Positions 1 to 5,945 of a stretch of 64,000 nucleotides of DNA are shown one piece after another (within the stretch, counting starts at the first letter, position 1; the number at the start of each line of letters is the position of its first letter). The DNA lies in NCBI GenBank assembly GCA_047947115.1, contig CP170459.1, forward strand, positions 544,001-608,000. The letters are read 5' to 3'. A model generated the notes under the pieces. The model had not been told where the DNA came from, searched no databases, and saw only the letters and a list, made by a program, of their open reading frames with translations. The position numbers and the translations under genes are program-made. Origin of the DNA: Verrucomicrobiota bacterium. Lineage in GTDB: Bacteria; Verrucomicrobiota; Verrucomicrobiia; Limisphaerales; AAA164-E04.

Positions 1-1059
1 TCGTAGGCTGCTGGCAAATTTCTTGATGGGTTCCAGACGTGAGCGCATAGCTCTGGTGCACCACTTGTTCAAATACCACTCAGCCCAATATGGGCTAGTG
101 TAATTCCAAAAGAACTCAAATGCTTCTTTGAGCAAAAATGCCCGAACACTTTTCAGATCATACTGGAGGACTTCCTCCAGCTTAATCTTTTGATTGGGCG
201 TGAGGTTCTCACGACGTTTGAGAAAGCAGTATTTGGTGTGTTTAAGCACTTCCTGGTATCCGTCCTGACGCATCTTACGCGCTTCGACCGCCCTGACTTC
301 ATTGATTGCTTTGTTCAGATTGGCTACGATATGGAAGCGATCCAACACGTGGAGGGCGTGTTCGAGTTTTTCCTTAATCACATTGAGATAAGGTTTCCAC
401 ATGTCCGAACAAACAAATTGAATGGACTCAAGTTGCTTTTGAGTGAGGATCTTAAAAAAATCCCGAAGGGATTGCTCGGTTCTCTCCTTGGTGACGCTTA
501 ACAATCGGCGCGTGCCTTGATCTATCTGGTAAACCACCGTCAGATACTTTTGCCCCTTTCCAAAATGCACCTCATCAACTCCGATGGCATTAATATCGTC
601 CAAACTCCTGTGCTTCAAGCCGTATTCAACAATGGAAGCAACGGACCGATACACCGATTGCCAACTGACTTCAAAGGTCTGGGCAACTTCTTTCCATGAA
701 AGTTTCCGAGCCCACTGTGCAAGGAAGTGTTCCATGACACAGGTTATCCGGCTTTTTCCTTTGGCCCAAGGAACCGATTCGATGACAACACCGTCATTGG
801 GGCAGTTAACTCTTCGCATCCGGTATTCAAGAAACACCGGCCACCCCCATAAGGGGATGAATCGAAACTTTCGTTTTCCAGGACGATGGTCATAGGTGGA
901 AGCACTACGATTGCACTTTGAACATACTGGGCGGCTGTTTTGCCGTGGTTCAACGCTTACGACAATAGCTTCGACTCCTTCAACTTCCTGGAAGCATGCT
1001 TGGCGATAGACAAAGGATTTGAATTTATGGCAACGATTGAGCAAGGTTTTCAACAGCAT
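1..1059 (-). CDS. ISL3-family DDE transposase (3'-truncated by window edge; not in ORF track)
   Basis: Hand translation from ATG 1059: MLLKTLLNRCHKF...CSKC (Zn finger)...AIGVDEVHFGKGQKYLTVVYQID...FVCSDMWKPYL...VLDRFHI...LKSVRAFLLKEAF...WCTRAMRSRLEPIKKFA. The segments checked are in one frame running to position 1. Confidence 0.92.
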   Translation of the reverse strand, partial: MLLKTLLNRCHKFKSFVYRQACFQEVEGVEAIVVSVEPRQNSRPVCSKCNRSASTYDHRPGKRKFRFIPLWGWPVFLEYRMRRVNCPNDGVVIESVPWAKGKSRITCVMEHFLAQWARKLSWKEVAQTFEVSWQSVYRSVASIVEYGLKHRSLDDINAIGVDEVHFGKGQKYLTVVYQIDQGTRRLLSVTKERTEQSLRDFFKILTQKQLESIQFVCSDMWKPYLNVIKEKLEHALHVLDRFHIVANLNKAINEVRAVEARKMRQDGYQEVLKHTKYCFLKRRENLTPNQKIKLEEVLQYDLKSVRAFLLKEAFEFFWNYTSPYWAEWYLNKWCTRAMRSRLEPIKKFASSLR

Positions 1060-1328
1060 CGGCACTCTTTGACGAGGTTTGTTTTGGCGACGCCATGTTG
1101 AGGAGATTGCCGATGCTTTTCGAATAAAAATCCTCTGGGTTTTTCTTGGAGAAAAACCACACCACCCGTAGGCCCTCTCGCGTCGTGGAAGTCCAGGAAA
1201 ACATCATATAAGTGCCGAAGGCCGACTCCGCGTCAGCGGGGGAGTTATGCTGATGTTTTACTGGACTGGAACAGAGCGATAGGGCATCCCGACGTGCTCA
1301 ATTTACCCACTCTTTTTTGAGAAGACCC
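1..1328 (-). mobile_element. ISL3-family insertion sequence (left end in window, right end beyond the window start)
   Basis: Minus strand from 1328 reads GGGTCTTCTCAAAAAAGAGTGGGTAAAT, resembling ISL3-type GG-starting terminal inverted repeats. It is followed by ~270 nt of non-coding end and an ISL3 transposase. The AT-rich flank AAAAATTG (1329-1336) is a candidate 8-bp target duplication. Confidence 0.8.
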
Positions 1329-1390
1329 AAAAATTGTTATCAGGTCGTCAGGAACAACCTAGAAAGGTTCGAGGTATGGATCAAATGCAA

Positions 1391-1453: not shown

Positions 1454-2146
1454 TCAAGCCCCACAAACCGCAACTGCCTGGCAATCGCCGACCGATGCCC
1501 AGGCAGATGGAAACTCGATTACTGGCAAAGCCTCTTCGCGATTCAGTCGTTGAAGCGTTTTTTCGAGCCGTTTGCGAATGCGGAACATGCGAACTTTCAT
1601 GGCGGAAATGTTCCAGGCGGTTTCCTCTTGCGCCTGGTTGTAGGTAAATCCACGAAGACAGATCAAATCCACCAAAAGTCGATCGTCGGGATTCAGGGTT
1701 TCCAGCAATTTATCAACCAACTCCCGGGCGGCCCAGGATTGGGACGGCTCCAGCTCTTCGTCGCTGGTGGTCAGAGATTCGATAACGCGGGCTTCTTCTT
1801 CCCCCAGGTCTGCCAGACGCAATTCCTGATTGGCGCGCGCTTTGTGGTAGGCATTGGTGCACATGTTCACCGCCACCCGGCTGACCCAATGTTTCAACGG
1901 CACCTTGCCGGAGTATTGGCCCAGTTTTTGAAAGACCCTGATGAAAATATCCTGTGCAAGATCCTCCGCACACCCGCGCCGCGGCAACCGCGCCCGCACA
2001 ATCGACATGACTTGTGGATAGAGAAAATCAAGCAATAAACGGGAAGCATCTTCATTGCCTTCAATCGTTCCGCAAATCCATGCATCCACTTCGGGGGGGT
2101 TGACTTGTTTGGTGACGTTTTTTGAATCGGGTTTAATGGTTGTCAT
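1454..2146 (-). CDS. ECF-type RNA polymerase sigma-70 factor
   Basis: Region 2 ([16 protein letters not shown]...WVSRVAVN) and region 4 ([12 protein letters not shown]). 4-bp ATGA overlap with the upstream kinase. Confidence 0.9.
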
Positions 2147-5100
2147 AAGGATTTTTCCTTTATTTGTTTTTTTGAAATCTCTTCATCGATCAGTTCCAGA
2201 CTGGGAACTTTAATGACCCAGGCATTGTCATTGCCGATGATAAATAGTTTTTGATTGTCCTTACCGAACTGAAGCCGATCGAGTCGTTCATTGGCACCTC
2301 CTTCAGGTTGAAACGACAGCATTTCGCGGCCTGTCTCCATGTGCCAGATTCGAACGGTTCCATCGGGGCTGTAAGTAGCGACAGATCTTCCATCGTGCGA
2401 AAAAGCGGCGGCGTGAATCCCCTGTTTATGTCCGGTCAATATATGCTCCACCTGGCCTGTAAGGGTGTTCCACACCAGGCCCCGTTTATCCCAACTGCCG
2501 GCAGCCATGACAAGAGCCCCATCCGAAGAGAAAGTCACAGATCGAGCAGCATAATTCATTCCGGTCAAAAGAGACACTTCGCGCCCCGCATCGAAATCCC
2601 AAACAGCAATGTCTGATCCCTCACCCTGACGAGACAAAGCAAGATATCGCCCATCCGGACTCGCTCCTAAAAATGATTCATATTCTTCCGGGATGCTGGC
2701 AGGCTCGTTACGGTTGTCGCGGACATTCCAAATTGAAAACCGATCATCGCGTTGGTATATCAAACGCTGGTTCGAGATGAATTCAGGGCCCGTCCGGGAA
2801 AACCCTCCCTGACGCTCATCCACCTGAAGGGTGGCTTCGAATTTACCTTCGATCATATCGTATAATTCGAATTCATCCTCCCCCACCCGACATGCTCCGT
2901 GTTGACCATCTGATGAGACGATATTTCGCCCCCATGAACGCCCGGCAGGCAGGAAGTAATCGATGTTGCCCTTTTCGAGTTCAGACAACAAGGCGGATGG
3001 AATCATCTCTGCGAGTCCCTGGAGTGAGGTAATTTTATTCGCCTGGCTTTCCTTTTGAACAAACTCGATACGCTCCATTTTTGGTTTGGCGCTCATCGCT
3101 CGCAAATCCCATAAATAAACTCTTCCATCTTTGCCACCTGAAGCAAAAGTTTGAGAATTTGGAGAGATCGCCAAAGAAAAAATTTCATCCAAATGCCCTT
3201 TAAAAGCTCCGATTTTTTTACCAGAAGATGCTTCCCACACATGAAGCAGATAATCCCATCCACCTGCTACCAGCCACTGTGCGTCGGGCGAAAATTCTGC
3301 GGCAAACAACATGCCGGGCTGAGATTGTTCCAATTCGATTTCACGTTCTTCAAACGGATTGAACAATCGAAGTTTCAGTTCAATGGCACTACGGCTGAAA
3401 GGATCGCTCATCCAAGCGACATACTGCATGCCATTTGCCACAGATATCAAATGAGTACGTGTAGAGGAAAGGAGGGGCCAATCCGCCAATTTCATCCCCG
3501 AAAGCGTATCAAAAATGGATATGCTCTCATCATTCCGCTCCTTCAAGGCCAACAAACGATCATCCTCTGAGAAGGCATAGCCTCTCACATGCTTTTCAGC
3601 AAAAGGGTGCGAGGAAACATCCAATGGGCGATCTCCTTCGTGCCCTATGTCGTATAAATGAAATCCCTGACCGTTATATGCGACGAATTTATCCGATTTC
3701 TCTTGTTCAATTAACGGAAAACCAACTTCTTTGAGACAGGCCTCCTGTTCCCACGTATCAGTGCGCCAAACAATCAATTTGGCACGTTTCATACTATTCC
3801 ATCTTCCACCTATCCTTCCGGCATACAAAAACCGGTTATCACTGGAAAATTTAACTCGCAAATTGGCCGGCCAGGATTCGAACTCAGCATCCAGCTGTGC
3901 AATCTGCATTCGGGTGCTGACATTCCATACTCCAACCTTTCCATCTGAAGCAAATCCGACCAACATTTCTCCATCTCTGGAGAACGACACAGCACCAACA
4001 GGTCGCGACAGATCTTCAAACACATAGAGTTGATCGCCTCGACACCTATCCCAGAGATACTGCCACTCAAAACCTCTCAAATCTTCAGCGTCGGCGTTCT
4101 CGGGAGTGTATTTCAGAAGCAATTCCCGACTTTTTGCGATATTGTCCGCCTCCAGAAACTGTTGAGCTTGATACATGTCGGAGGCATATAGATTCTGACG
4201 TAAGGCACGAGCTGAGGTAAGGGCAAAATTACGCTGTTCATTGGCATCCTGCTCCCTCAGTTCCGCCAGTTCCCTGGCATCTTTGGATTCCTGGGCATGC
4301 TGATCCGCGTTTTTCTGCGCAATGGTCGCTTTGAGCGCCAGCCATGTGCTGACCACTGAACCGACCGAGAGTAATAACAGAATAATGGCGGCAACGGAAA
4401 TGGCCGCCTTATTACGACGCGCAAATTTGCGGAACCGATACATCGAACTTGGCGCTGCCGCCTTGACCGGTTCGAAGTTCAAATAACGCTGAACATCCAG
4501 AGCCATTTCAGCCGCGGTTTCGTAACGTCGATTGCGATCCTTCTCCAGGGCCTTCATCACGATCCAATCCAGCTCGCCGCGCATCACTCGGTTCAATCTG
4601 GACGGTTCGGTATTGCGACGCTTGGCAATGGAGGTTAATTCCTCGACATTCATCGAGGTCAGTTGCGTGGAAGGGTAAATCGGTTCCTCATCCCGGATCC
4701 GACGGCGCATCTCATCGTAATCAGCCTTGGTCAGTTCCTTGGCATCCAGCGGTGTGCGCCCGGTCAACAATTCATAAAGCAACACACCCAGCGAATAAAT
4801 GTCCGTACGGGTATCGATATCCAATCCGCTCATCTGAGCCTGTTCAGGACTCATGTAGGCGGGCGTGCCCATGAATTGATGAAATTGGGTAAAGAGCGTC
4901 TTGTCTGTCAGACGCTGTTGGGTGGCCTTGGCGATACCGAAATCGATGATCTTGGGTACCGCCTTGTGATCGTGCATGGTCACCAGAATGTTGGAAGGCT
5001 TGATGTCCCGGTGAATCACACCCTTCTGATGCGCATGTTGAATGGCGCTGCAGACATCCATGAACAACATCAAGCGCTCATTGGTATTCAAGTTCTGCTG

Positions 5101-5628
5101 ATCACAGAACTCGGTAATCGGCACCCCCCGAACCAATTCCATGACGAAATAGGGACGCCCATTCTCGGTTGCCCCGGCATCCAAAACCTTAGCGATGTTG
5201 GGATGTTCCATCATCGCAAGCGCCTGACGTTCCGCCTCAAACCGGGCGATCACCTGTTTGGTATCCATCCCCAACTTGATGATTTTCAACGCCACACGGC
5301 GAATCACCGGCTTCTGCTGCTCAGCCATGTAAACCACGCCACAACCACCTTCACCGATGTTCTGCAACAGTTTATATGGCCCTATAATGGAACCTTCGCC
5401 TTCTCTTGGAGCGGGCTCTTCAGAAACCTTGGTCTGCTCCTGCGGGTCCATAGGAATAAAATCCGTCCCCTCCTGATGGGCTTCCAAGAGACGTTGAACC
5501 CGGCCAAGCAAGTCAGGGTCACCAACACAAGCGCGCTCAAGAAACCTCTGCTGCTCAAGAGGATTCAAGATCCCCTCAGCCTCCAGAAAGATTTCCTTCA
5601 CTTTTTTGCTTTGGTCGTTCATCGCCAT
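2143..5628 (-). CDS. Hanks-type Ser/Thr protein kinase with transmembrane helix and C-terminal WD40 repeats
   Basis: [45 protein letters not shown] segment [16 protein letters not shown]. Multiple GH...SPD...WD repeats. Start set at MAMNDQ (5628); the track extends to 5691. Confidence 0.95.
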
Positions 5629-5945
5629 ATAAAATGCGCCCCAACACACATACATGCGACGAAAGAAATCGAATTGGGCCAAATTAGTCAAAAAAACTTC
5701 ATTATGATCCCCAATTACCCTTGAAATTGCTGCATCTCAATACCACTTGCTCGAGGACAAGGCTACCCAAGGCCTGAACATAGTGGACAGTTTGGCCAGG
5801 TTTCACTAGTTTCGGGGACCATGCTAACACCAGTCACACCACTCCAATCTCCTGTCGGATGGAGCCATTTCGCATTTCTGAATTGGCTCAATGTAACAGT
5901 CATGCTGATTTCGGAAATTCGATCCATTTAGAATCATCCATTACC

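Follow-up and report, generated by a model that had tools for sequence, protein, structure and literature searches.

A long, branched hairpin, referred to here as HP1, lies close to the left end of an insertion sequence (IS) of the ISL3 family in a Verrucomicrobiota genome; it is real, it is under selection, and it is found neither in Rfam nor in the literature that we located. Our preferred reading, which is tentative and to which we give somewhat less than an even chance, is that HP1 may serve as an optional cis-acting signal of the single-stranded DNA (ssDNA) priming type, similar to the ssi and sso signals of other replicons. The observations on which this reading is based are the fold itself, the selection on it, its exclusion from the predicted transposase mRNA, the exchangeable slot in which it lies, and the junctions between abutted terminal inverted repeats (IR-IR junctions) that occur elsewhere in the same clade of elements.

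HP1 and its host element

The DNA analyzed is a stretch of 64,000 nt (the window) from Verrucomicrobiota bacterium GCA_047947115.1, contig CP170459.1, positions 544,001-608,000 of the forward strand, and the coordinates used below are those of the window unless another locus is named. The earlier note on this DNA had assigned the host element to ISL3, an assignment that is confirmed by its Pfam domains (DDE_Tnp_ISL3, Zn_ribbon_ISL3 and HTH_Tnp_ISL3, with a zinc ribbon and an HTH), its terminal IRs and its 8-bp duplications. The element is 1532 bp long, occupies the minus strand between window positions 1328 and -203, and exists in the genome in 11 copies of at least 99.9% identity that differ only by G or T at position 1065. 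Target duplications of 8 bp flank 11/11 of these copies, and the 11 target 8-mers are AT-rich and mutually unrelated. The leader is 269 nt long and consists, in order from the end of the element, of the left IR (1328-1301), HP1 (1285-1172), a small hairpin (1158-1138) and a second large hairpin, HP2 (1120-1052). HP1 sits 43 nt inside the left end and starts 113 nt upstream of the transposase ATG at 1059. The features of the region are:

1172..1285, + strand: HP1, 114 nt, an imperfect stem of ~35 pairs that is interrupted by a GGA/GGA internal loop and topped by two hairpins
1214..1222, + strand: HP1 apical hairpin GCC-GAA-GGC, containing CCGAAGG, a GNA-triloop DNA mini-hairpin motif (as defined in passages of PMC13037366)
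1226..1241, + strand: HP1 apical hairpin CTCCGC-GTCA-GCGGGG, containing the mini-hairpin motif GCGTCAGC = GCGNNAGC, with a G-U pair at 1227:1240
1138..1158, no strand assigned: small A/T-rich hairpin between HP1 and HP2, 1/23 positions changed in the relative L111
1052..1120, - strand: HP2, in which an upstream arm pairs with the ribosome-binding site and ATG of the transposase
1095..1100, - strand: predicted -10 box within HP2, weak in this element
1025..1207, - strand: 60-codon uORF in a frame other than that of the transposase, overlapping the left arm of HP1 as well as the transposase start
1..1059 and on to -194 beyond the window, - strand: ISL3 transposase, 417 aa
1301..1328, - strand: left terminal IR, with 20/28 bases matching the right IR
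1329..1336, no strand assigned: 8-bp target-site duplication, of which the second copy falls immediately outside the window, on its left

The neighborhood includes a second, distant ISL3 element (27% identity) just left of the window at G000:C1 ~542236-543598, ~200 bp away, and, on the minus strand at 1454-5691, genes for an ECF sigma factor and a Ser/Thr-kinase-like WD40 protein that are directed into the element and end ~125 nt from its left end, from which read-through might originate. The genome also contains GTAG-type REP-like repeats and many further multicopy IS types.

The fold of HP1 is far beyond chance. Its outer stem pairs 1172-1181 with 1276-1285 at 9 of 10 positions, with a C1177.T1280 mismatch, and leads inward through a 4-bp stem and the facing GGA triplets (1187-1189 and 1268-1270) to an inner duplex of 1190-1211 with 1245-1267 that contains one G.A mismatch (1197.1260), a bulged C1250 and a G-U pair at 1207:1249. 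All of the pairings listed in the earlier note are present, sequence and folds being in agreement on them. As RNA, the predicted energy is -54.5 kcal/mol (z -5.18) on the + strand and -48.3 kcal/mol (z -5.88) on the - strand; as DNA, the two strands give z -5.84 and -5.82, and in each of these four cases 0/200 shuffles equal the native value. Folding of both strands, a check that the earlier note had proposed, thus gives a strong structure on each (z about -5 to -6). That note had also favored the + strand, which is antisense to the transposase and directed outward through the left end. The wobble pairs lean the same way, with 6 G.T pairs on + against 1 on - in a hand tally of native and variant HP1 that is suggestive only, whereas the energy z-scores give no + strand preference for HP1 as RNA or DNA. 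For the leader as a whole, the + strand gives the more stable fold (-114.9, z -5.39, vs -100.4, z -3.37, for the - strand). HP1 is without a known family in Rfam (no match over 1172-1285 at E<=5), and a scan of 40 related loci returned only sub-threshold matches to generic hairpins.

The 60-codon uORF is probably incidental. A -1/+1 indel pair keeps it open in L111, it is without an obvious ribosome-binding site, and a comparable uORF is present in 8/62 leaders. It was rejected as the cause of HP1 arm conservation, since the arm outside the uORF is also conserved (2/41 changed).

Selection on HP1 and the variable slot

In L111, a relative with 88.7% protein identity, 80/157 four-fold sites have changed, as compared to 4/81 positions of the HP1 stem (Fisher p 3e-14), and the linkers around HP1 change freely (6/14 and 4/11). 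Counts of this kind indicate that the stem is under strong purifying selection. The apex has been rebuilt in L111, with 7/33 positions changed and 10 gaps. A second variant, V2, comes from contigs of two runs and shows two gains of Watson-Crick pairs, two new + strand wobbles and three to four broken pairs; it may be decaying, because 35 nt of HP2 are also skipped in one run. The GCC-GAA-GGC hairpin is replaced by a GCGAAGC hairpin in L111 and lost in V2, and the core of the GCGTCAGC hairpin is kept in V2 and altered in L111, with at least one mini-hairpin motif retained in each of the three HP1 variants. One side of the GGA/GGA loop reads GTA in L111 and GAA in V2. Covariation, a check that the earlier note had proposed, is absent from HP1 among the available variants (native, L111 and V2), in which 0/36 pairs are altered on both sides. 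Relatives at 64-93% protein identity exist (P0006-P0017).

Sequence that is kept without covariation, and whose changes cluster at mirror positions (1177/1280 and 1196-1197/1260-1261), speaks for HP1 as double-stranded DNA, i.e., as inverted binding sites or a cruciform, or as captured cargo of the REP or MITE type. HP1 is palindromic, as are REPs and ISL3-derived MITEs, the foot of its stem in this copy carries GTAG (1168-1171), as in the REPs described in passages of PMC2817692, and many copies of the sister module discussed below are free-standing. Against this, the GTAG is lost in both L111 and V2, HP1 shows no repeat ends of its own and its arms are unlike the terminal IRs, and sequence and model searches of the genome place it in the 11 IS copies and nowhere else. 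If HP1 were neutral cargo, moreover, a tenfold stronger conservation than at silent sites would not be expected. We consider this family of explanations improbable.

To view HP1 in its clade, we kept those leaders in which a left IR could be detected and whose elements reach 38% protein identity or more (149 leaders, 107 after dereplication); loop and fold statistics were computed on 62 gene-free leaders of 135-410 nt that form 36 clusters. Between the IR and HP2, 14/107 leaders (95-119 nt) have an empty slot and 29/107 have an outward-directed passenger gene of ~140 codons in it, and the remaining leaders carry other slot sequence that is often strongly folded (z<-3 in 17/36 clusters) and falls into mutually unrelated groups. 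Across the clade the mid-leader folds have no strand preference (p 0.23). Stems of at least 20 bp occur in the slot in 21/36 clusters as compared to 14.2 expected, and the two-hairpin cap is not enriched (10 vs 11 expected). A covariance model built on two HP1 sequences has no match in 80 other loci or 150 genomes of the phylum, and HP1 DNA has no match in plasmids and chance matches only in 60 relatives. In viral contigs the apex motif gave 120 matches, mostly chance with a few REP-like hairpins, and no transposase relative was confirmed there; a transposase search of plasmids found matches in 5 records. By these comparisons, HP1 is a conserved but optional module and not a family-wide ISL3 RNA. 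The second ISL3 element of this genome has a leader of ~60 nt and 10 full-length copies, and a slot that is optional in this way would suit a part that raises efficiency, not one that is essential.

In the passenger-gene leaders (L036:368-790, minus strand, and 28 related leaders) the gene starts ~10 nt from the transposase ATG. An outward -10 within the first transposase codons scores above the synonymous null in 27/29 of them. The passenger protein has no Pfam or NCBIfam match; by eye only, it resembles an integrase N-terminal helical domain.

Structured RNAs of IS non-coding ends are functional in IS10 (RNA-OUT), IS110 (bridge RNA) and IS200/605 (omegaRNA), and HP1 resembles the latter two in being a structured non-coding end of an IS. 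To our knowledge, bridge RNA and omegaRNA are obligatory and family-wide, whereas the slot of HP1 is empty, gene-filled or occupied by unrelated structures across relatives. The transposase cofactor entertained in the earlier note, or a guide RNA, is not supported, given the 14 empty and 29 gene-filled leaders and the fruitless model search, and the 11 unrelated target 8-mers argue against target guiding by HP1.

HP2 and transcription of the leader

HP2 is conserved in the clade, with z<-2 on the coding strand in 70/78 leaders (passenger-gene group excluded) and no strand preference overall (p 0.21). A -10-like hexamer is present ~43-47 nt before the ATG in 44/78 leaders, as compared to 28.1+-3.8 in shuffled sequence, and since this hexamer lies within HP2, the transposase mRNA is predicted to start in HP2 and to leave out HP1. 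HP1, being upstream of the predicted promoter, would then be neither within nor complementary to the normal transposase mRNA. The earlier note's suggestion of antisense control or attenuation by HP1 is not supported at this position, 113 nt upstream of the ATG and beyond the predicted promoter. In read-through RNA, HP2 reduces the predicted accessibility of the ribosome site (0.21 vs 0.35), and an A-run stands in front of HP2 in 30/65 cases vs 4/65. Translational control of the transposase is likely, from these predictions, to reside in HP2 and not in HP1. HP2 resembles IS10 RNA-OUT, ISPpu9 Asr9 and 5' structures that bury a ribosome site, in that its ~70 nt cover both the ribosome site and the ATG and include a predicted promoter; an outward promoter, the other part of the likeness, is predicted in some relatives and scores no higher than the null in this element. 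HP1 differs from IS10 RNA-OUT in having no overlap with the predicted mRNA or its translation-initiation region. By these models, the IS10-like regulatory feature of the element is the neighboring HP2, which is missing from the earlier note's list, and HP2 would define a clade-wide, IS10-like translational lock in ISL3. The allele at 1065 carried by 4/11 copies strengthens HP2 from -25.8 to -28.9 kcal/mol, so that the predicted strength of this hairpin is tuned by a single base that varies between copies.

HP1 might instead act on RNA as an insulator, its ~22-bp inner duplex provoking RNase III cleavage or pausing on read-through from the left end and thereby backing HP2, a task for which any long hairpin would suffice. 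RNase III prefers a duplex of about two helical turns, and IS10 is protected from outside transcription. HP1 folds about equally on both strands and lies upstream of the predicted internal promoter, unrelated long stems are found in the slot of relatives at the excess given above, and HP2 has the effect on read-through RNA just described. Inward read-through, however, needs the coding strand and the wobbles favor the other one, HP1 is without a U-tract, and the sister module is short-stemmed and can sit in a transposase ORF, sense strand included (L333). An insulator is in our estimate unlikely. HP1 was also rejected as an intrinsic terminator, there being no stem with a U-tract between 900 and 1600 on either strand, an interval in which promoter and terminator consensus searches likewise found none.

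The proposal closest to that of the earlier note, which had inferred an ISL3-encoded non-coding RNA, is that HP1 is a folded domain of an outward transcript, e.g., the 3' part of an RNA that begins at the transposase start and includes antisense HP2. Selection, the lack of an Rfam match and the slight lean to the + strand stand in favor of that inference, while an outward promoter or terminator and compensatory change, which it would lead one to look for, were not found. The better + strand fold of the whole leader and the 6:1 wobble tally point the same way, as does the RNA-like G-U interchange of the sister module, and the 29 passenger-gene relatives, 27 of them with an outward -10 above the null, indicate that outward transcription of the slot can occur. 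According to passages of PMC8450116, IS10, IS30, IS200 and ISPpu9 are under the control of small RNAs. An ISL3 end that forms a hybrid outward promoter is described in PMC13142319. For the element at hand, the outward promoter score over the first 22 codons is 3.9 as compared to 4.2 for the synonymous-codon null, it is below the null in L111 too, and a -10-only test found no excess in 61 hairpin-type leaders. The A-run before HP2, read as a U-tract, would end such an RNA before HP1, although it may instead be an UP element; neither HP2 nor the mid-leader folds have a strand preference in the clade, and HP1 does not covary. We hold an outward RNA to be possible but doubtful. Metatranscriptome contigs from 4 studies span the leader and transposase, one of them as a single 1601-nt contig, and are evidence neither way because they do not show ends, strand or level and may derive from DNA. 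Three further candidates were checked by eye and found unconvincing: a promoter formed at the junction of abutted ends, a -35/-10 pair of the Frpo-like kind within the stem of HP1, and a C-rich apex acting as an anti-Shine-Dalgarno sequence.

The sister module and single-stranded DNA

The largest group of slot sequences, in 13 leaders, has in common a cassette of ~170 nt, the sister module, of which one example is:

L134:350-545: sister-module cassette with a covarying core and no Rfam match, also found as free-standing copies

Its 70-nt core covaries at 12/18 pairs over 19 sequences, a count that relatedness can inflate (0/500 shuffles; slid controls low). By pattern and model searches, the module adjoins or lies inside IS3/IS481 transposases (L333, L340, L375, L406, L421), and it is found with IS21 transposases (L395, L405, L417), with ISH6-like transposases that score below the curated cut-off (L374, L379/L381), ISH6 having a Mutator-like affinity, and, in partial form, with an IS110 transposase (L378). 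Relative to the transposase it is found in either orientation, two copies lie within the ORF, that of L333 on the sense strand, and 11/16 strong model matches are without a transposase ORF within 500 nt. This spread across IS families, in either orientation and within ORFs, suggests a host-recognized signal rather than a transposase-specific RNA. In ISL3 its G-U pairs place the fold on the coding strand, opposite to the lean of HP1, and its G-C to G-U interchange is typical of RNA. The module is short-stemmed and not homologous to HP1; it shows the kind of thing that the slot accepts. An IS4 (L406) and an ISAs1 fragment (L336) adjoin two of its copies and were rejected as hosts, since by eye they appear to be separate insertions. 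A search of plasmids for the module gave chance matches only and a search with one viral pattern gave none; the motif tables of large RNA-discovery studies could contain it.

Both apical loops of HP1 fit DNA mini-hairpin motifs (CCGAAGG and GCGTCAGC), and both do so on the + strand; in a test chosen post hoc, a shuffled 114-mer has at least two such motifs on the same strand with a probability of 0.019. According to passages of PMC13037366, the mini-hairpin d(GCGAAAGC) melts at 76.5 C as compared to 39.0 C as RNA, and CCGAAGG is a motif of ssiA of plasmid RSF1010. Over the 36 leader clusters, c(GAA)g loops number 6.9 on the non-coding strand vs 1.9+-1.2 in shuffled sequence and 2.2 on the coding strand, and the non-coding strand shows no enrichment of the RNA loops GNRA and UUCG; the strand bias of loops across the clade is weak (sign tests p 0.11 and p 0.48). 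The strict mini-hairpin motif occurs 15.8 times in the clade vs 10.3+-2.8, with 10/300 shuffles as high.

[quoted passage not shown] Rolling-circle replicons begin their second strand at an ssi or sso that is read by the host, signals that rely on host enzymes only (passages of PMC5714925). Head-to-tail IRR-5 bp-IRL junctions are present in two unrelated genomes of the clade (L031:1807-1812 and L079:2054-2059); no IR-IR junction was found in this genome or among contig loose ends. It is the combination of circle formation in ISL3, a second strand made by the host, the junctions of relatives and the ssi precedent that leads to the priming reading. During copy-out of the element into a circle, or on its entry by conjugation, HP1 would be exposed as a single strand, and host primase or RNA polymerase would engage it so that the second strand begins. 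On the + strand, i.e., the transposase template, which is weakly favored, HP1 lies near the 3' end of the element, and a strand primed at this site would extend over nearly all of it. The known ssi and sso signals (RSF1010 ssiA, the phage G4 origin and rolling-circle sso) are, like HP1, long imperfect or branched hairpins with GNA or GNNA loops, and RSF1010 ssiA has the same CCGAAGG (passages of PMC13037366). With regard to the stable one-strand hairpin of these signals, the DNA fold of HP1 is predicted at z -5.84; with regard to their strand specificity, the wobbles (6:1) and both motifs fall on +, and the z-scores are equal on the two strands. HP1 is unlike them in lying inside a DDE insertion sequence and in matching no sequence family, and priming by HP1 is a prediction.

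Against priming stand the many elements that manage without the module (the 14 of 107 short leaders and the second ISL3), the sister module, which is on the opposite strand and RNA-like, and V2, which loses the GAA loop. A broader proposal, which we put forward as speculation with the chances against it, is that circle-moving IS (ISL3, IS3/IS481, IS21, ISH6-like and IS110) may carry interchangeable sub-terminal ssDNA priming modules, HP1 among them, that are swapped across transposase families and recruit host primase or RNA polymerase. The passages of PMC7780238 that deal with the copied-out circle name no IS-encoded priming signal. Our search of the literature, mainly of freely accessible main texts, found no structured ISL3 leader and no IS-borne ssi; the earlier note knew of no characterized equivalent in ISL3 of the IS10, IS110 and IS200/605 RNAs. 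A portable, optional hairpin common to unrelated IS families would offer a direct handle on the second-strand step of the circle, and even if it acts as RNA, the covarying sister module would be an unannotated structured element in at least five IS families.

Two minor observations concern other hairpins of these groups. The core hairpin of the sister module has one match, which may be chance, at L394:687-709 in a 3.6-kb viral contig resembling a small rolling-circle virus. The leader hairpins of L112, L133, L006, L067 and L098 carry DnaA-box-like 9-mers in their stems and resemble DnaA-dependent priming hairpins in this respect.
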